64,000 nt of DNA from Candidatus Saccharimonadales bacterium (GCA_035758575.1 DASTXH010000017.1:22945-86944), one strand, 5' to 3'. Shown: positions 4,102-62,638, counted from the stretch's first letter. Notes: generated by a model not told the origin, from the letters alone. Numbers and translations are program-made.

Positions 4102-5138
4102 TCGTTTCGCTCCGCCAGGCCTACGGCCACGCCAAACTGATTAGATATTGCCAGGAGTTCATTCTGCCGCTCCGCGCCGAACAGTACATTCCGCCAAGCA
4201 TTACCAATCTCAACATTCAGTACGAATTTGTTCGCCAAAAATAATGGGAACTCCGGCAACACTGATCCGCCACCCGTTACCACAATTCGATCAAAGCTAG
4301 CACTGGCATACCTCGTCTGAAAGAACTTGATGGATTTCTCAACCTCAGATGTAAGCAGTTCCACCGTATTTATGATCGCCTCGTATACTTGCCCTTCCAG
4401 CTTGTCTTTACTAAGGCCAAATTTCATCACGAATTGGCTGGCCTGTTTTTCGTCGATATTCAGGTTCTGCATAGCAGATCGCATGATGGCTTCAATACCT
4501 GTTGGAATAGATCGCGTCAAGCGAGGTAAGCCGCCATACACCGTTACGATATCGGTGCTTTTTTGGCCGACATCCAGTATCATGAACGCGCCGGCGGCAT
4601 CGCTGGGCGCAAGCGAACGAGCAAGTGCCAAGCTGTCGGGCTCAAATGCGATGACGTTCAGCCCTGCATCCTCAACGATGTCCAGACGTCGTTCTACAAA
4701 CTCATTTGGGACTGATGTGAGCAGGATCTCGTTCTTGGTTTTGTCTATAGGAGAATCGCCAAGTACCGCCCAATCGATCTTAGACTCGTTAAGGGGTGTT
4801 GGGATAAGCGCATCCGCCTGATAGCGGATAGATTTTTCTAGCTCATGCGTAGGCAGCCGGTCCACGTCTGCAACCGTCGTGAACACACGGCTGCTGGGAA
4901 TGTTTACGGCAACATTTTTGGTGCTGAACTTCGCCTGCTCGATCAGCTGTACGACTGCCTGGGTTAGTCGCTGCTGATCATTTTTGGAGTCGCTGAGAGC
5001 TATACGGCTATCGATGGGCATATATGCATACTTATACAGTGCTTTCTGTGAGCCAGCTCCGTGCAGCTCAACAGCCCGTAACGCCGAGCTGCCAATGTCT
5101 AGTCCAAAAAAGTTTGACCCACCGCTGAGTAGCCCCAC
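4098..5138 (-). CDS. pilM: PilM, actin-like ATPase of the type IV pilus inner-membrane platform
   Basis: 346 aa. Has the FGLDIGSSALRAVEL phosphate-1 motif of the actin/HSP70 fold and a C-terminal IVVTGGGS motif. GTG start. First gene of the pilMNO block. Confidence 0.85.
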   Translation of the reverse strand: MGLLSGGSNFFGLDIGSSALRAVELHGAGSQKALYKYAYMPIDSRIALSDSKNDQQRLTQAVVQLIEQAKFSTKNVAVNIPSSRVFTTVADVDRLPTHELEKSIRYQADALIPTPLNESKIDWAVLGDSPIDKTKNEILLTSVPNEFVERRLDIVEDAGLNVIAFEPDSLALARSLAPSDAAGAFMILDVGQKSTDIVTVYGGLPRLTRSIPTGIEAIMRSAMQNLNIDEKQASQFVMKFGLSKDKLEGQVYEAIINTVELLTSEVEKSIKFFQTRYASASFDRIVVTGGGSVLPEFPLFLANKFVLNVEIGNAWRNVLFGAERQNELLAISNQFGVAVGLAERNE

Positions 5139-56522: not shown

Positions 56523-56555
56523 TGCGGGTGATTCCTCCGTTATGGTTATATTCGG

Positions 56556-56582
56556 CTAGCACTCATGAAGTGGTAGTGCCAG
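56556..56582 (-). promoter_or_regulatory. CIRCE-like inverted repeat 1 (degenerate) in the groES 5' UTR
   Basis: Reverse strand CTGGCACTA-N9-GAGTGCTAG against consensus TTAGCACTC-N9-GAGTGCTAA (6/9 and 8/9). Confidence 0.45.
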
Positions 56583-56585
56583 CCA

Positions 56586-56612
56586 TCAGCACTCAATATA
56601 GCCAAGTGCTAA
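56586..56612 (-). promoter_or_regulatory. CIRCE operator (HrcA site) overlapping the groES promoter
   Basis: Reverse strand TTAGCACTT-N9-GAGTGCTGA against consensus TTAGCACTC-N9-GAGTGCTAA (8/9 and 8/9). Confidence 0.7.
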
Positions 56613-56623
56613 CCGCGGGTCAA
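56595..56623 (-). promoter_or_regulatory. Candidate groES promoter (TTGACC-N17-TATATT)
   Basis: The -35 TTGACC (56618-56623) overlaps the stop of the upstream gene. The -10 TATATT (56595-56600) lies in the CIRCE spacer. Confidence 0.5.
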
Positions 56624-57345
56624 GAGGGAAGCATGCGGTTAAGCGTATCCATAAGCTGTAGCGCCTCTTGGTCCCGTTCTCTAGTACTAACGAAATTATG
56701 TCGTGTCTTGTTGTAGACCTTCGACTGGTGACGCGTGAGGACGATAAGTTCAAATGGCACTTGTCGGTTGCCTACTGTCGTGTGTAGTTTCGCCTGTAAT
56801 ATACCTTGTCGAACGAACCGTGGGTCACTAGCGCCGTTCGCAAGCGGGCTGATCTCACCTCCTTCGAACTCGCAGCATGCATGCTCTAACACACGCCGCG
56901 GAAGTACATCATTGGGCGTTCGGACCAAAAAAGCATATAAATCACTGATTCTATCTGTCGAGGCAGCGTTTTCCCGACGCTTGACCTTACCAAGGATGCT
57001 GCTGATCTCTTTCGTGCGCCCAGCCAGTTCCAGAACGTTCGCCTCGAACGGCGAATTGCACAGCATTTTAAGCACGTGTTCACCGATGGCATACCCCACT
57101 TCTTTCATCTCGCTCTGGATTCTCTCGTGCTCGTACACCAGTCCTGGAATGAAGCAAGAGGCTTCAGCGCCGCAGCCAAGCGCACCTATAGTTCGAGCAA
57201 TCTCCTGCCGCCACCGGATAATATCCATGACTTCAGGCTGCTCGAGATATGTTTCTGGCGGCTTCAGCTCAGCTTCATAAGAAGACCACGGGTAGTACTC
57301 ACCTGTGGGGGGCGTCATTATGAGTGATTCGTATGGGTTAATCAT
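56620..57345 (-). CDS. Hypothetical protein (unit 3 of the leader-controlled orphan cluster)
   Basis: 241 aa from ATG 57345 (247 aa from TTG 57363). No recognisable motif. Preceded by leader copy 1. Confidence 0.55.
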   Translation of the reverse strand: MINPYESLIMTPPTGEYYPWSSYEAELKPPETYLEQPEVMDIIRWRQEIARTIGALGCGAEASCFIPGLVYEHERIQSEMKEVGYAIGEHVLKMLCNSPFEANVLELAGRTKEISSILGKVKRRENAASTDRISDLYAFLVRTPNDVLPRRVLEHACCEFEGGEISPLANGASDPRFVRQGILQAKLHTTVGNRQVPFELIVLTRHQSKVYNKTRHNFVSTRERDQEALQLMDTLNRMLPS

Positions 57346-57361
57346 AAATACTTTCTGTAAC

Positions 57362-57392
57362 AAAAATCTCCCTCGGGATTCGAGGGAGATTT
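57362..57392 (-). terminator. Intrinsic terminator of leader copy 1
   Basis: Reverse strand AUCUCCCUCG-aaucc-CGAGGGAGAU followed by UUUUUG. It ends about 20 nt before ATG 57345. Confidence 0.7.
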
Positions 57393-57435
57393 GTAGTGTT
57401 GTTCCTTATTTCGTGATGCGTTTTTTTACGCTACG

Positions 57436-57492
57436 CTACAATCTCCCTCTTGCTTGAGGAAAATGACCATGTGGTCGAGAATGTATTGGCAT
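57436..57492 (-). CDS. Candidate 18-aa leader peptide MPIHSRPHGHFPQARGRL (copy 1)
   Basis: ATG at 57492 and TAG at 57436-57438 inside antiterminator arm A. The only two substitutions against copy 2 are synonymous. No Shine-Dalgarno seen. An alternative overlapping 24-aa frame exists. Confidence 0.3.
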   Translation of the reverse strand: MPIHSRPHGHFPQARGRL

Positions 57493-57528
57493 AAAGACAT
57501 CGTTATATGCGCTCCCTGGTTTAAGTAA

Positions 57529-58503
57529 TTACCGTTTGTTAGCGTCACCATACCGCGCTCCTCTGCCACTATCTATCTCGCGCAATGCGGCCTCTGGGTC
57601 TTCGAGAAATAAATGTGCGTTGAGATGGTTTGCGTGGAAAAAGTCTGCCATATCATTAGCGCGCAACATACGGATTATGCGCGCCGCACTCCCTAGGTCC
57701 AGCGCCGGCATACCCTCTGATTGCCTTAGGTTTCGCTCGCGCAAAATATGAGCCAAGCCCACGAGCGCCATCTTACCCTCAAATGTGGTTCTTATAGAAA
57801 AAGCTTCAAGGGTTGCCGTCGCAGGTCCGTCTATTGCTTGGTCGCGCCACGTCCATTTACCTTCGCGCCAACGGTTATCGTGTGCCGTACCCAACACCGT
57901 AACTCGTGGATGTCCAATAAGCTCTTCCACGAGCGGCTGGAATGTCCGGGCATATTCCTCAGCCGCACTGCGGGAGCGCGCCTTGCCACTACTGCCCTTA
58001 TAGCCAAGGTAGTCAACATTATCTAGAATCACCACACCGCCCGCATACTGGGCATGCTCCATGAAACGCACAAGAGGCTCGCGAATGTTTTCGACACCAG
58101 TACGCTTGCCAGCATTCACATGTGTCGATAATGCGAACGTCGGAACGTTATGGACGACTGCCGCTACCTGCAGATCACGCACAAGGTGACTTTTGCCACT
58201 GACAGGCGCCCCCTCCACGAGTACAGATCCGCTAGTCTTTAATCCTTGGGCTATTCCACCTACTTCTGTAAAGCTGCTTTCATCGGGTAAGGATTCTAAT
58301 AAATCACCTAGATCCCCGGGCGTTTCAGGTGTAAACAGCCAGTATCCTCGTCCATTCGCTGAATTTTGTTCGATCTCATTTGGCCGAGCAGCTAGAGGGT
58401 AATTATTTACTGACGTCATAGATGCATATTTAAACACACCAATACCAGACCATCCCATATTTGGGCCATTTGCCGTAGATGTATCGTGTAATTCCAGACT
58501 CAT
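57529..58503 (-). CDS. P-loop ATPase (AAA-like), N-terminal unknown domain (unit 2 of the cluster)
   Basis: 324 aa with Walker A VEGAPVSGKSHL, a Walker B-like GGVVILDNVD and a sensor-like VTVLGTAHD. Confidence 0.7.
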   Translation of the reverse strand: MSLELHDTSTANGPNMGWSGIGVFKYASMTSVNNYPLAARPNEIEQNSANGRGYWLFTPETPGDLGDLLESLPDESSFTEVGGIAQGLKTSGSVLVEGAPVSGKSHLVRDLQVAAVVHNVPTFALSTHVNAGKRTGVENIREPLVRFMEHAQYAGGVVILDNVDYLGYKGSSGKARSRSAAEEYARTFQPLVEELIGHPRVTVLGTAHDNRWREGKWTWRDQAIDGPATATLEAFSIRTTFEGKMALVGLAHILRERNLRQSEGMPALDLGSAARIIRMLRANDMADFFHANHLNAHLFLEDPEAALREIDSGRGARYGDANKR

Positions 58504-58516
58504 ATAATTTCTTTAT

Positions 58517-58548
58517 AAAAAATCTCCCCCGGTATTCGAGGGAGATAT
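58517..58548 (-). terminator. Intrinsic terminator of leader copy 2
   Basis: Reverse strand AUCUCCCUCG-aauac-CGGGGGAGAU followed by UUUUUU. One U-A pair of copy 1 is U-G here. It ends 14 nt before ATG 58503. Confidence 0.7.
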
Positions 58549-58663
58549 GTAGGTGTTACTTTAACTTCGTGATGCGTTTTTTACGCTACGCTACAATCTC
58601 CCTCTTGCTTGAGGAAAATGACCGTGTGGCCGAGAATGTATTGGCATGAAAACGTAGACATCG
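58518..58663 (-). promoter_or_regulatory. Conserved leader/attenuator element, copy 2
   Basis: Same architecture as copy 1: arm A 58591-58605, arm B 58537-58552, arm C 58522-58532. Confidence 0.6.
58591..58647 (-). CDS. Candidate 18-aa leader peptide MPIHSRPHGHFPQARGRL (copy 2)
   Basis: Peptide identical to copy 1 despite two nucleotide changes (CGA/CGG and CAT/CAC). Confidence 0.3.
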   Translation of the reverse strand: MPIHSRPHGHFPQARGRL

Positions 58664-58669
58664 TGGGCG

Positions 58670-58697
58670 ATTATATATACTTTTATAGGAAAGTCAA
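58670..58697 (-). promoter_or_regulatory. Candidate sigma-70 promoter of leader copy 2 (TTGACT-N16-TATAAT)
   Basis: The -35 (58692-58697) starts right after the stop of the kinase-like gene. The -10 (58670-58675) lies 8 nt upstream of an ATG (58659-58661) that opens the alternative 26-aa leader frame. Confidence 0.5.
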
Positions 58698-58698
58698 A

Positions 58699-59502
58699 CT
58701 AGGCAGGCTTCTCTACCGTGAGAAGCCACTCAGGCTTAAAACGAGCATCATTGGTCCACCGCTCGACAATCTTCGGCTGGTCCTTATAAGACACAGGCAG
58801 GTGAGGCTGATAGCCCAGCGCATCGAAATACGGTTCGAGCAGCACAGTGCTTAACTCATTAGCGCGTACCCGATTATCCTTTATGTCTCCCAGGTAACCG
58901 CTCCACAACGCAGAGACGCCCATGCTATACAAGTCGTGACATATACGAACACCAAATTCGCTCTCGGTGACATTCTCGTTGAATACTGTTTTTTCGGCAT
59001 CAAAGTATATGAACGAACCATCGGCTGCGAATGCCATATTCCAGATTTTGAGGTCGCCGTGGGAAATGCCGCGGTCATGAAGCGCTGCTGCGACCGTCGC
59101 CATGCGTCCAAAGGTCTTCGTCAGTCGATCCTGACGTACTCTGTCTTCAGAGCTTGGAGTCCAATCCAGATGAGATAAAGGCCGGATGTCTTCACGATAC
59201 GTCAATAGAATATGCCTATCATAGCTGCTCACTACACCTATAGGCTCTACCACTTTCAAGCCCGGCATATTCTCCTCAGCAACGCTTTCAAGGTTGTCGA
59301 GCTCCGCATGGGCATACCTACGCGCGGCATGGGGCTTTGCGACGACTGGGCCATATTGTGTCAAAACACCCGGAACTACGCCGTGTGCCGACTGGCGCAT
59401 GCCCGCTGCGAGGTGCGTAGCATCAGGAATAAACGTCAAACCCATCACAGAATGGATATCTTCTGCGACTTGCTTAGCATGCATTTCGTACGCTTGGCTC
59501 AT
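58699..59502 (-). CDS. Protein-kinase-like fold protein (APH/ChoK/Kdo/RIO-type catalytic loop)
   Basis: 267 aa with catalytic loop ISHGDLKIWNMAF (HxDxxxxN) and downstream metal-binding Asp in IYFDAEK. No clear Gly-rich loop. Confidence 0.65.
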   Translation of the reverse strand: MSQAYEMHAKQVAEDIHSVMGLTFIPDATHLAAGMRQSAHGVVPGVLTQYGPVVAKPHAARRYAHAELDNLESVAEENMPGLKVVEPIGVVSSYDRHILLTYREDIRPLSHLDWTPSSEDRVRQDRLTKTFGRMATVAAALHDRGISHGDLKIWNMAFAADGSFIYFDAEKTVFNENVTESEFGVRICHDLYSMGVSALWSGYLGDIKDNRVRANELSTVLLEPYFDALGYQPHLPVSYKDQPKIVERWTNDARFKPEWLLTVEKPA

Positions 59503-60133: not shown

Positions 60134-60164
60134 AATAAAATCTCCCTCGTGTTGAGAGAGATTC
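60134..60164 (-). terminator. Intrinsic terminator of the degenerate third leader copy
   Basis: Reverse strand AUCUCUCUC-aaca-CGAGGGAGAU-UUUAUUUGU. The stem mismatch is a U-G wobble only on the reverse strand. Confidence 0.6.
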
Positions 60165-60255
60165 TGTCATCTAGCGTAATGCTCTTGTCTACAACATCAT
60201 TCTCTCGGGCGACAATTGAGAAAAATCTCTATAAGCGTGTAGAACATGGCTATTA

Positions 60256-61563
60256 TTATAACACTTTACTATATTTAGTCAACAGTTGCCTCGTCAAAAC
60301 AATTTCGTCCCAAGGATGCTCGCCGTCGGCACGCTCTATGGTTTTTTCATGGCCTTTGCCCAGCAGCAATACCGTATCGCCTTTTTGTGCACGTTTTAAG
60401 GTAAAGGCTATAGCCTGCTTACGGTCGTGCACCAAGAACAAATTTTTATCACGAGTTTTGCCCGCCGCCTCGGCGCCACTGGCGATCTGGTTCAGAATTT
60501 GCATGCCATCGATATCTCGGTCGTCTTCTTCGGTCAGGATCACTTCGTCGGCATACTCGCCGGCCAGCCTGCCCTGTACTGCCCGTTTTGCTTCGTCGCG
60601 CCGGCCGGCGCTGCCGAACATCACGATCATTCTGCCCTTTACGACCGGCCGTAAATCTTTGAATAATTTTTCGAAGCTGTCCGGAGTATGCGCATAGTCC
60701 ACGATCACGTCGAAATCCTGACCCTCGTCTATCGTCGTCATACGTCCTGCAACGCCCTGTAAAGCGGCAATCCCCTGCTCTATCTGCTTTTTGTTCAAGC
60801 CCAGCGCCCGGCCTACACAGACTGCCGCCAAGCTGTTCTGCACATAAAACTCACCAGGAATGTGGCATACGATGTCGTAGCTGTCGCTCCCGGCTACGGC
60901 CGTATACCGGCTGCCACTTGGCGTACATTTAACGTCCTTTGCACGCACATCGCCGCCGTGCACACCATACAGTATCGGATGCGGGGTGGTATGCGCAAAG
61001 CGCTCGCCCTGCGTATCATCTGCATTGGCAATGCCTGTTTGCAAACCTTTCTTGTTTGCCGCCACCAGTCTGAACAAACGTCGCTTCGCCTCACTGTAGC
61101 GCTCAAATGTCTTGTGATAATCAAGGTGCTCGTGAGTGATATTGGTGAGTACGCCTACAGAAAAAGGTACGCCCCACACCCTGTACTGCGCCAAAGCCTG
61201 GCTCGTCACTTCCAACACCAGCCAATCTATTTTCTGCTCACGCATCCATTGCAGCCGGCGCATCAGCTCCGGCACTGGCACATTGGTGTAGTGATGAACC
61301 TGCTGGCGAATATCGTCGTCCACACCATACGACACGGTGGTCATAATGCCAGTCTTATAGCCGGCGCTGACCAGCATACGGTGAATAAAAAAGGCAGTCG
61401 ATGTTTTACCGTTTGTGCCCGTTACGCCAATCACCTTCATATCCCGCCCCGGGAAACCATGCATAGTATTCAACAATACAGCCTCGCCGAGATGGCCGTA
61501 GGGCTCAATTGCATGGAATGCGCTAGCAGGGATGACTTTTTTAACAACTCTACGGATATTCAT
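60256..61563 (-). CDS. murE: Mur ligase family protein (MurE-like UDP-MurNAc-tripeptide synthetase, short N-terminus)
   Basis: 435 aa with VIGVTGTNGKTSTAFF P-loop, the central domain motif NITHEHLDYH and a C-terminal domain. The P-loop is at residue ~50 instead of ~110. Confidence 0.8.
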   Translation of the reverse strand: MNIRRVVKKVIPASAFHAIEPYGHLGEAVLLNTMHGFPGRDMKVIGVTGTNGKTSTAFFIHRMLVSAGYKTGIMTTVSYGVDDDIRQQVHHYTNVPVPELMRRLQWMREQKIDWLVLEVTSQALAQYRVWGVPFSVGVLTNITHEHLDYHKTFERYSEAKRRLFRLVAANKKGLQTGIANADDTQGERFAHTTPHPILYGVHGGDVRAKDVKCTPSGSRYTAVAGSDSYDIVCHIPGEFYVQNSLAAVCVGRALGLNKKQIEQGIAALQGVAGRMTTIDEGQDFDVIVDYAHTPDSFEKLFKDLRPVVKGRMIVMFGSAGRRDEAKRAVQGRLAGEYADEVILTEEDDRDIDGMQILNQIASGAEAAGKTRDKNLFLVHDRKQAIAFTLKRAQKGDTVLLLGKGHEKTIERADGEHPWDEIVLTRQLLTKYSKVL

Positions 61564-61609: not shown

Positions 61610-62638
61610 TTAGGCGGTCTTGGCCGTCTTGATAATTGTGGCCGTCATGTCATCTGCCCGCTTGCCGCCCATTCCTTGGGCGCCGCGCACACGCATGTCA
61701 TCTGTTTGAGATGTGCGAGCATATGCGGCATGCACGATCACTTTCGCACCCAGCGCCGGGTTGCCAAGATCTGCGAACAGCTCGGCCACAGCTGCAGTGA
61801 ACTGGCCGTCACCGTCAAGGGATTGATCATGTTTCAACAGTTCGCGTATCCTGCTATCTTTAGGCAACCGACCCGTCTCTGCCATCGTCATAAGGTCTAA
61901 TAGTTCCGGGTCAGTTAGGAGATCGTGGATGCCGTCAGTACAGAGCAATAGCCTATCCCCAGGCAACATCCTAAAAGAATGCAGCTCCAAAGCCGGTTCC
62001 TTCTCGTAGCTATGATACCCAACAGCTCGGTTGCGAATCGCAAACTGGCCAAGGAATTGGCCTAAGTCGGCCGTCTTTGTGGCATCGGCCATTACTACCT
62101 GCGCCTCTTTGGTATGTGTTTTGCCACCGTTGTCGAGGGTAAGCACCTGGAACGTATCGCCTCTCATAGGGCTGTCTAGGTAGGCCCGCGTGTCACCAAC
62201 GTTAAAAACCGTAACGTGTGTCTGCTCTGGCTGGTGCCGCCCATTGGGTAGAGCATGTGCAGGCACGTCATAAAACCTTGCACCCACCACAACAGATCCT
62301 ATGCCTCGCTTATTTGGATCAGCTTTTACTATATCCGCATACGTCTGTGCACCTGCAGCCTTTATCGCGTTGGTAACGTCCTGATCGGTTGTTTGCCAGC
62401 GCGGAACGTCAAGGTAATTACTCATGCTTTTTATCACCTGCGCAGAAGCAACTTCACCGCTAGCTTCACCACCCATACCATCGGCTACAATAAAAGTATA
62501 CGTTCCTTCGAAATGAGCATCCTCATTGCGATGCGGATGATCTTCACTGGCAAGGCTATACGACCCCGCAACGGGGTGTAGTGCTAATCGCTCGTAGTGC
62601 TGTTTTGGCGCATTAAGCTGTTCTTCGTGCATAACCAC
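61610..62638 (-). CDS. PP2C-family Ser/Thr protein phosphatase with C-terminal extension
   Basis: 342 aa with FIVADGMGGEASGEVAS (motif II) and LLLCTDGIHD. Confidence 0.85.
   Translation of the reverse strand: MVMHEEQLNAPKQHYERLALHPVAGSYSLASEDHPHRNEDAHFEGTYTFIVADGMGGEASGEVASAQVIKSMSNYLDVPRWQTTDQDVTNAIKAAGAQTYADIVKADPNKRGIGSVVVGARFYDVPAHALPNGRHQPEQTHVTVFNVGDTRAYLDSPMRGDTFQVLTLDNGGKTHTKEAQVVMADATKTADLGQFLGQFAIRNRAVGYHSYEKEPALELHSFRMLPGDRLLLCTDGIHDLLTDPELLDLMTMAETGRLPKDSRIRELLKHDQSLDGDGQFTAAVAELFADLGNPALGAKVIVHAAYARTSQTDDMRVRGAQGMGGKRADDMTATIIKTAKTA

Follow-up and report, generated by a model that had tools for sequence, protein, structure and literature searches.

A probable leader-peptide transcription attenuator, present twice, ahead of an AAA+ ATPase-like gene and a RelA/SpoT-like gene in a Candidatus Saccharimonadales genome

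A 64-kb stretch of a metagenome-assembled Candidatus Saccharimonadales genome (GCA_035758575.1, DASTXH010000017.1:22945-86944; hereafter the window, meaning all 64,000 nucleotides analysed) carries on its minus strand two copies of a leader of about 140 nucleotides (nt), one ahead of a gene for an AAA+ ATPase-like protein (copy 2) and one ahead of a RelA/SpoT-like gene (copy 1). The locus raises the question of whether, and by what means, these leaders decide if RNA polymerase proceeds into the genes behind them. Both copies probably represent one ribosome-mediated (leader-peptide) attenuator of transcription, built from four segments as in trp. An earlier note on this DNA had arrived at the same kind of mechanism from its mutually exclusive helices, its terminator, and an open reading frame (ORF) running through one of the arms, all of which stand; what that account missed was the anti-antiterminator.

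The three arms of each copy, A, B, and C, were all found where the earlier note had placed them (Table 1). Arm B can pair either with arm A upstream or with arm C downstream, the two helices being mutually exclusive, and B:C has the form of a canonical intrinsic terminator, that is, a G+C-rich hairpin with a U-tract located between promoter and gene. The stems measure 10-12 base pairs (bp), the loops 5 nt, and the terminators end 15-20 nt ahead of the downstream ATG. The A:B helix uses the 5' arm of that terminator, as an antiterminator does. Several dimensions required amendment. For A:B of copy 1, given previously as 15 bp, duplex prediction yields 14 bp and one bulged base, as was correctly stated for copy 2. 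The terminator length of 10 bp holds in copy 2 (one G-U pair included), whereas the stem of copy 1 reaches 12 bp (AAAUCUCCCUCG/CGAGGGAGAUUU). The five U residues said to follow arm C in copy 1 read UUUU-G-UU with the arm as delimited, or U5-G-UU if its last U is counted; copy 2 has an uninterrupted U6.

When arm B was compared with all of the sequence upstream of it, the best duplex reached -21.6 kcal/mol in both copies, against -7 +/- 2 for shuffled upstream sequence, and none of 2000 dinucleotide shuffles matched the observed A:B energy. The A:B energies run from -21.6 to -22.6 kcal/mol. The window holds 18 terminator-like hairpins, among which copies 1 and 2 rank second and third for upstream complementarity; its clear intergenic (gene-end) terminators score -10 to -13. 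The two copies count as one observation because they are duplicates of each other, about 88-90% identical over 133-153 nt.

Related loci, referred to by handles such as L017, were obtained from the contigs of protein homologues and by scanning metagenomes with the DNA pattern of arms A, B, and C (three loci), a protein-guided scan of metagenome contigs having returned nothing. Near-identical leaders (the c1 type, after copy 1) are present in four related Saccharimonadales assemblies (Table 1), and in L017, L018, and L020 they precede RelA/SpoT-like genes whose products are 31-76% identical to that of the window. Six leaders (copies 1 and 2, L017/L019, L018, L014, and L020) have the same arms A, B, and C throughout and differ in the linker between A and B, in the loop of the terminator, and in the base that is bulged (A, U, U, C, C, and G). 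Substitutions in the segment upstream of arm A and in the small hairpin described below preserve pairing through G-U. To judge from the aligned sequences, this pattern is one of selective conservation.

The protein-guided scan of genome contigs gave two distant loci only, L001 and L002, both from Saccharibacteria, with AAA+ homologues 33-35% identical. Upstream of the AAA+ gene, each has a -10 box, a 29-codon ORF, and an arm A near the 3' end of that ORF (GUGGUUGAAGCC or CUGGUUGAAGCC, i.e., (G/C)UGGUUGAAGCC), the arm sequences being unrelated to those of the c1 type. The corresponding arm B (GGCUUCAACCAC or GGCUUCAACCAG, i.e., GGCUUCAACCA(C/G)) pairs perfectly with arm A over 12 bp, is at the same time the 5' strand of a hairpin followed by U5-7, and differs between the two loci by one compensatory exchange of G-C for C-G in the A:B helix. 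The energy of -22 kcal/mol was reached by none of 2000 shuffles, and in the minimum-energy fold of L002, the first codons of the ORF are once more the partner of arm A. Among the independent evidence for the A:B/B:C logic, these two loci carry the most weight.

The fourth element lies upstream of arm A. In the minimum-energy folds of both leaders, arm A is paired with a segment of the leader ORF (UACA-U-UCUC plus CCUC; segment 1) in a small three-way junction composed of the helices UACA/UGUA, UCUC/GAGA, and CCUC/GAGG, between which stands a 4-bp hairpin, G(A/G)CC-ACA(U/C)-GGUC. Folded alone, the junction has an energy of -17.3 (copy 1) or -16.7 kcal/mol (copy 2) and makes up about 69% of the ensemble, with z-scores against shuffles of -4.5 and -3.8, respectively. 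It spans codons 6-22, sequestering arm A and overlapping the leader ORF in the manner of an anti-antiterminator, and the layout is that of the four-segment trp type, with 1:2, 2:3 (A:B), and 3:4 (B:C) pairings.

Folding of the growing naked transcript places 1:2 as the minimum-energy structure up to a length of 117 nt in copy 1 and 121 nt in copy 2. A:B wins solely at lengths 118-130 and 122-137, respectively, an interval of 13-16 nt right after B emerges; beyond it, 1:2 together with the terminator wins (-46.6 against -40.1 kcal/mol in copy 1, -40.7 against -38.8 in copy 2), and the same combination is the minimum-energy fold in L017 and L018 also. Masking of nucleotides 1 to 42-54, mimicking an early stalled ribosome, gave A:B in all four of these leaders when the transcript ended at arm B; with the full-length leader under the same mask, A:B still won in copy 2 and L018, and copy 1 and L017 returned to the terminator. 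Masking of the 3' part of arm A, mimicking a ribosome at the stop codon, let the terminator fold. The earlier note's expectation that an absent ribosome would favour read-through runs against these folds: arm A is held in 1:2 and the complete naked leader prefers the terminator, although the outcome hinges on kinetics. An untranslated leader is therefore predicted from the folds to terminate, as in trp superattenuation.

The following course of events is proposed. In copy 2, transcription would start no more than about two bases from the AUG of the 26-codon ORF, if not at the AUG itself; of this ORF, codons 6-15 constitute segment 1 and codons 18-22 segment 2 (arm A), and the two segments would fold co-transcriptionally into the junction that hides arm A. 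With no ribosome on the transcript, arm A would stay hidden, B:C would form, and RNA polymerase would stop at the U-tract after about 140 nt. A ribosome keeping in step would already be at the stop codon, which lies 8-10 nt past arm A, when B appears, and would cover arm A, again leaving B to pair with C. A slow or stalled ribosome with its P site at about codons 4-13 would instead melt segment 1 and free arm A for the 14-bp A:B helix, C being left unpaired, and the polymerase would proceed into the AAA+ gene. Termination would be the default, and read-through would occur only with a ribosome at about codons 4-13 as arm B emerges. Copy 1 would be the same device set between the AAA+ and RelA/SpoT-like genes, with a GGAG ribosome-binding site in place of the promoter. 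The arms with their exclusivity, energies, and conservation, as well as the geometry of promoter and ORF, come directly from sequence and computation; translation of the ORF, termination at the B:C hairpin, the kinetic order of folding, read-through brought about via folding kinetics by a ribosome on segment 1, and the inducing signal are inferred.

Several features of the start signals bear on whether the leader is translated. The spacing between the -10 box and the ATG is 8 nt in copy 2, L017, and L018 despite differing spacer sequence, 7 nt in L002 and in a diverged third leader of the window (copy 3), and 9 nt in L003. A like leaderless geometry is found at no fewer than seven ordinary long genes of the window and at the AAA+ genes of L004, L008, and L012. 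In the window, a TATAAT-like hexamer stands 6-9 nt 5' of the ATG, with no Shine-Dalgarno sequence, at the starts 9409(+), 11383(+), 36625(-), 36696(+), 45242(-), 50619(-), and 61563(-). Judged by these starts, leaderless messenger RNAs seem common in this genome; highly expressed genes, e.g., groES and groEL, use GGAGG. The promoter scan gave no convincing promoter belonging to copy 1, where the 11-nt spacing from GGAG to ATG equals that of groES in the window. Both promoter-less copies (copy 1 and the 3' copy of L014) bear GGAG before an in-frame ATG, at 11 and 9 nt, respectively.

The pattern of change within the ORF points in the same direction. Four of its five indels are multiples of three (6, 9, 3, and 9 nt), those outside it being of 1, 2, or 4 nt, and the sole +1 insertion, in L017, is followed at a distance of one codon by a UAG stop, UAGCGUAGCGUAA offering a stop in each of the three frames. 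This all-frame stop (57426-57438 and 58581-58593, minus strand) shares with arm A the three bases UAG at the arm's end and continues downstream; it is kept in every c1-type leader, the L017 insertion shifting termination to the first UAG. The stop codon lies 8-10 nt beyond arm A in copies 1 and 2 and 0-13 nt beyond it in every leader that possesses arm A, such that a terminating ribosome could cover segment 2, and a usable start signal precedes the ORF. Two candidate ORFs had been proposed for copy 1 and both do run through arm A; the first alone (57500-57426) is conserved in relatives, the ATG of the second being lost in L017 and L014. In L001, L002, and L003 the leaders have (F/Q)IIV(S/C) in common, with synonymous differences (TTC/TTT and ATC/ATT). 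Taken together, these sequence patterns suggest that the leader ORF is translated.

A number of observations weigh against the attenuator as proposed. The arms being invariant, the c1-type group offers no two-sided covariation, and support between groups comes from two sequences, L001 and L002. Changes in the c1-type ORF are nearly all non-synonymous (about eight against one synonymous: D/G, M/T, I/F, F/L/I, L/F, and C/R); they are nonetheless compatible with pairing, and RNA structure rather than peptide sequence therefore seems to be constrained there. The c1-type peptide, ...CQYIL(D/G)H(M/T)V(I/F)(F/L/I)L..., contains no run of identical codons, adjacent Ile-Ile being confined to L001-L003. 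An explanation by rare or regulatory codons was considered and rejected, no cluster being present: the only minor codons in the ORF body are CUC (Leu) and GGA (Gly), and TCT and TTA at leader codons 2-3 are equally minor. Copy 3 and L003 retain ORF and terminator with no significant antiterminator, and most AAA+ orthologues have no leader, just TATAAT and then ATG 7-9 nt on. In a transcript ending at B, moreover, A:B is 4-6 kcal/mol more stable than 1:2, and termination without translation therefore depends on folding kinetics. Lastly, the 5' half of L014 folds the 1:2 junction weakly (z = -0.95).

Alternative explanations should also be given their due. The leader might be an attenuator that dispenses with the ribosome, its junction acting as a small aptamer or binding site for a metabolite, protein, or RNA, such that the bound form keeps 1:2 and terminates, the unbound form is read through, and the ORF is incidental. 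A well-defined junction (z = -4.5; about 69% of the ensemble), substitutions that preserve its pairing yet alter amino acids, and a P1 helix joined to an expression platform in the usual layout of an OFF riboswitch all speak for this possibility. It is nevertheless unlikely. The covariance models of Rfam 15 gave no meaningful match over the whole window at gathering score and, for 57200-58800 at E <= 10, chance-level matches only, the best being the rimP leader (E = 1.7), aligned mostly at the terminator stem and U-tract; six related loci at gathering score gave none apart from an unrelated L10 leader in L001. Variation is seen in the junction strand (AUUUU, AUUCU, and UUUAU), whereas riboswitches normally conserve their junctions best, and the helices have just 4 bp each. 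In L001 and L002, the ORF and the A:B/B:C logic come with quite a different upstream fold, and an incidental ORF leaves unexplained the ATG at the transcription start, the in-frame indels, and the GGAG of the promoter-less copies. Quite unlikely, in turn, is a tiny independent gene, consisting of promoter, 16-29-codon ORF, and terminator, whose peptide acts in trans while A:B is secondary and tunes leakage downstream. Trans-acting leader peptides are known, peTrpL being one example (PMC7298713), an ORF and a terminator are retained in copy 3 and L003, which have no significant antiterminator, and the shared (F/Q)IIV(S/C) differs by synonymous changes; on the other hand, no purifying selection is visible on the c1-type peptide (about eight non-synonymous changes and one synonymous), the L017 frameshift replaces its C-terminus, the peptides have neither the length nor the hydrophobicity of clear membrane peptides, and a 14-bp A:B helix that is invariant in six leaders and re-created from other sequence in L001 and L002 can hardly be called secondary.

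It is very unlikely that the leaders are merely a repeat or recombination element with no regulatory role, i.e., direct repeats that duplication of a cassette left behind in a variable island, with hairpins that are ordinary gene-end terminators. The copies (57346-57528 and 58504-58698) are indeed direct repeats 1155 nt apart bracketing the AAA+ gene, the contigs of sample SRR33230361 break exactly within the leader repeat (at the ends of L014 and the start of L020), and in L018 (760-960) the order is kinase-like gene, leader, Rel-like gene; the AAA+ gene is missing there, which is what recombination between two copies would produce. The element, however, is always in the sense orientation directly 5' of a gene and has its own promoter (other than the promoter-less copy 1 and L014 3' copy); its arms are selectively conserved while the linker drifts, and an equivalent of unrelated sequence exists in L001 and L002. 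Mismatch-tolerant pattern searches, a repeat finder, and blastn recovered nothing from the window beyond these two copies and diverged copy 3, and about 140 kb of related loci held no extra copy.

As to what the ribosome-mediated attenuator would sense, a general sensor of translation delay is favoured because there is neither a run of identical codons nor a cluster of rare ones. The likeliest trigger, at a guess, is that translation as a whole slows down against transcription, through amino-acid supply or translation inhibitors, rather than the shortage of a single amino acid. Richness in Ile, Leu, and Val was considered as a mark of branched-chain amino-acid sensing and set aside, as the pyrimidine-rich segment 1, required to pair with arm A, alone yields such codons. 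Less favoured candidates are the sensing of a specific amino acid (Ile/Val in the L001 type) and arrest that depends on a drug.

The earlier note had likened the leader to the attenuators of amino-acid operons and of resistance genes, a comparison which holds for the mechanism and breaks down at the absent regulatory codon run and at the downstream genes, an AAA+ ATPase and a RelA/SpoT-like protein. With the trp-type attenuators of the Yanofsky model (E. coli trp, his, leu, thr, and ilv; PMC4007540, PMC1183508), the leader shares a short ORF by the promoter, an anti-antiterminator (1:2), an antiterminator (2:3), an intrinsic terminator with U-tract (3:4), and a stop codon that lets a terminating ribosome cover segment 2, termination being predicted both with fast and with no translation. 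It differs from them in having no tandem or adjacent regulatory codons, and its targets are not biosynthetic and do not make, charge, or import a sensed amino acid. Its 1:2 pairing is a three-way junction instead of a single hairpin, the ORF of copy 2 is leaderless, and the host belongs to Saccharibacteria, of the candidate phyla radiation (CPR). This group is not known to carry out amino-acid biosynthesis.

Leaderless sensory ORFs have precedents in Deinococcus deserti, for which 14 leaderless attenuator peptides were predicted (PMC4007540), and in mycobacteria, where polycysteine leaderless short ORFs were shown (bioRxiv 10.1101/834739). There too, the ORF stands at the transcript 5' end right after the -10 box and a stalled ribosome remodels the RNA downstream. 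Those peptides, however, are enriched in an amino acid tied to the downstream gene (e.g., Cys), whereas none is singled out here, and the mycobacterial output is translation, via sequestration of the ribosome-binding site, in contrast to the intrinsic terminator of the present leader. The systems bmrCD of B. subtilis (PMC4191407) and mef/mel(msrD) (PMC4335068) are translation-inhibitor-responsive leader-peptide transcription attenuators, in which stalling in a leader ORF with no codon run flips terminator to antiterminator and can report general translation stress, analogous to what is proposed here. Their genes confer resistance by efflux or ribosome protection, unlike the AAA+ ATPase and small-alarmone-synthetase-like genes of the window; sequence similarity is absent, and no known arrest motif could be recognised in the present leader. 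The three-hairpin attenuator of Corynebacterium glutamicum ilvBNC (PMC11857589) likewise combines alternative hairpins with a leader peptide, in an organism of Gram-positive type, and Ile, Leu, and Val abound in the leaders of L001 and L002 as they do in ilv leaders; its target genes are others, and that richness is confounded here by the pairing of a pyrimidine-rich segment 1 with a purine-rich arm A. The element fits the generic class of leader-peptide attenuators on all sequence-testable features and lacks the features of the amino-acid-specific and antibiotic-resistance subclasses.

Full-text literature searches found no report of a leader-peptide attenuator in Saccharibacteria or Patescibacteria, and the cis-regulatory RNA of Saccharibacteria and other CPR bacteria is almost uncharted. 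The leader offers a concrete, mutable device of 140 nt with clear predictions, and its placement before an AAA+ ATPase gene and an alarmone-synthetase-like gene is unusual. Were the signal translation stress, ribosome status would be linked to an alarmone-synthetase-like gene, a new input for that enzyme family; were it an ordinary attenuator, it would still show reduced genomes using intrinsic terminators, leaderless translation, and trp-style attenuation. A wider proposal, which must be regarded as doubtful, is that the leader serves a host-dependent CPR bacterium as a general sensor of transcription-translation uncoupling, inducing an alarmone-synthetase-like enzyme and an AAA+ ATPase beside groESL, and is a portable cassette as well. 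Ribosomes lagging through scarce host amino acids or translation inhibitors would then raise an alarmone or proteostasis response by transcription, not by RelA on the ribosome, and the promoter-leader-attenuator unit would have been duplicated and recombined together with genes of the variable island between Mur ligase and groES.

Table 1. Positions of the leader elements and neighbouring genes in the window, and c1-type leaders of related loci.
Feature	Position	Strand	Basis or remark
Copy 1 arm A (segment 2), AGAGGGAGAUUGUAG	57436..57450	-	sequence, duplex energy
Copy 1 arm B (segment 3), CUACAAAUCUCCCUCG	57381..57396	-	sequence, duplex energy
Copy 1 arm C (segment 4), CGAGGGAGAU	57366-57375; with U-tract 57361..57375	-	12-bp hairpin, -18.6 kcal/mol
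Copy 1 segment 1 (UACAUUCUC ... CCUC) and hairpin GACC-ACAU-GGUC	57456..57485	-	-17.3 kcal/mol, z = -4.5
Copy 1 leader ORF, MSLCQYILDHMVIFLKQEGDCSVA, then stop	57426..57500	-	in-frame 6-nt indel relative to copy 2
Copy 1 Shine-Dalgarno-like GGGAG	57512..57516	-	GGAG 11 nt ahead of leader ATG
Copy 2 arm A (segment 2)	58591..58605	-	sequence, duplex energy
Copy 2 arm B (segment 3), CUACAUAUCUCCCUCG	58537..58552	-	sequence, duplex energy
Copy 2 arm C (segment 4), CCGGGGGAGAU	58522-58532; with U6 tract 58516..58532	-	B:C terminator 10 bp, 6 G-C, 5-nt loop, -15.9 kcal/mol
Copy 2 segment 1 with the 5' strands of the anti-antiterminator (UACAUUCUC, CCUC) and hairpin GGCC-ACAC-GGUC	58611..58640	-	minimum-energy fold, z = -3.8
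Copy 2 leader ORF, MSTFSCQYILGHTVIFLKQEGDCSVA, then stop; 26 codons, predicted leaderless or nearly so	58581..58661	-	ORF kept in L017 and L018; start geometry as in leaderless genes here
Copy 2 promoter, TTGACT-16-TATAAT	58670..58697	-	11/12 consensus match; -10 box ends 8 nt ahead of leader ATG
Copy 3, diverged leader	60137..60282	-	promoter 60282-60255, ORF 60247-60197, terminator 60165-60137; upstream of 190-aa and kinase-like genes
Mur ligase gene	61563-60256	-	gene order in window
Gene for 190-amino-acid (aa) protein	60071-59499	-	downstream of leader copy 3
Gene for 267-aa Kdo/Bud32-like kinase	59502-58699	-	weak matches; between 190-aa gene and leader copy 2
Copy 2 target gene, 324-aa stand-alone AAA+ ATPase-like protein	57529..58503	-	Walker A and B motifs in translation
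Copy 1 target gene, 241-aa RelA/SpoT-like (small-alarmone-synthetase-like) protein	56620..57345	-	Pfam RelA_SpoT E = 0.004, under curated cut-off
L017 and L019			full-length c1-type leader, identical to each other
L018			full-length c1-type leader
L014			3' half upstream of 82%-identical AAA+ gene, 5' half downstream of that gene
L020			3' half of c1-type leader

The strong promoter of copy 3 is followed by a leaderless ORF of 16 codons (MFYTLIEIFLNCRPRE) and a terminator of 12 bp; this leader has UGUAG and the arms AUCUC.CUC / GAGGGAGAUUUU in common with copies 1 and 2. The same elements, i.e., UGUAG and an AUCUC(C/U)C...GGGAGAUUUU terminator as in the c1 type with the leaderless ORF kept, recur in L003. 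Both were rejected as further examples of A:B, the best upstream partner of arm B being no better than shuffles; in copy 3, it reaches -11.4 kcal/mol, a value attained by 256 of 2000 shuffles. Copy 3 could be a decayed or differently controlled relative. A conserved RNA 3' of the AAA+ gene in L001 and L002 was likewise discarded as a relative of the leader, as it is the Rfam L10 leader. In L001 (4840-4993), this RNA starts with GUUACCAAAGACAG and is the L10 leader (RF00557, 50.4 bits) 5' of rplJ-rplL; the matching stretch of L002 (about 4850-5040) fell short of the gathering score.

On the minus strand, the genes run in the order Mur ligase, copy 3, 190-aa gene, kinase-like gene, copy 2, AAA+ gene, copy 1, RelA/SpoT-like gene, two CIRCE-like repeats, groES, and groEL, the stretch from Mur ligase to groES being a variable island across relatives. 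The AAA+ gene adjoins groES in relatives and mostly sits between the Mur ligase gene and groES. Its product has just 18 homologues among 5.8 billion proteins, and a profile built from them matches the AAA modules of Cdc48/AFG2, RFC, FtsH, and ClpX weakly (E = 6e-6 to 1e-2). For the 241-aa RelA/SpoT-like protein, three homologues were found and a sequence search against PDB gave no match. Its structural model is of low confidence (predicted local distance difference test score, pLDDT, 50.6); with it, 43 of the 45 top Foldseek matches in PDB were RelP, RelQ/SAS1, Rel N-terminal domains, or FaRel2 (best E = 2e-4; template modelling score, TM, 0.36-0.44). The protein is tentatively assigned as a small alarmone synthetase. 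Pfam, NCBIfam, and PADLOC returned no match to resistance determinants (ribosomal RNA methylase, ABC-F protein, or efflux pump) among the four downstream proteins. The island was also considered as a defence system and rejected, PADLOC yielding a single weak kinase-domain match alone (MkoA, E = 5e-5).

Two tandem CIRCE-like inverted repeats (TTAGCACTT-N9-GAGTGCTGA and CTGGCACTA-N9-GAGTGCTAG) lie 5' of groES at 56554-56623 on the minus strand, overlapping a TTGACC-17-TATATT promoter in the usual arrangement of the HrcA heat-shock operator, and CIRCE-like TTAGCACTC...GAGTGC repeats stand 5' of groES in L003, L004, L007, L008, and L013 as well. Within 3 kb on the minus strand, the genes for the Kdo/Bud32-like kinase (58699-59502) and a PP2C-type phosphatase (61610-62638) flank the Mur ligase gene, and the two proteins could form a phospho-signalling pair.

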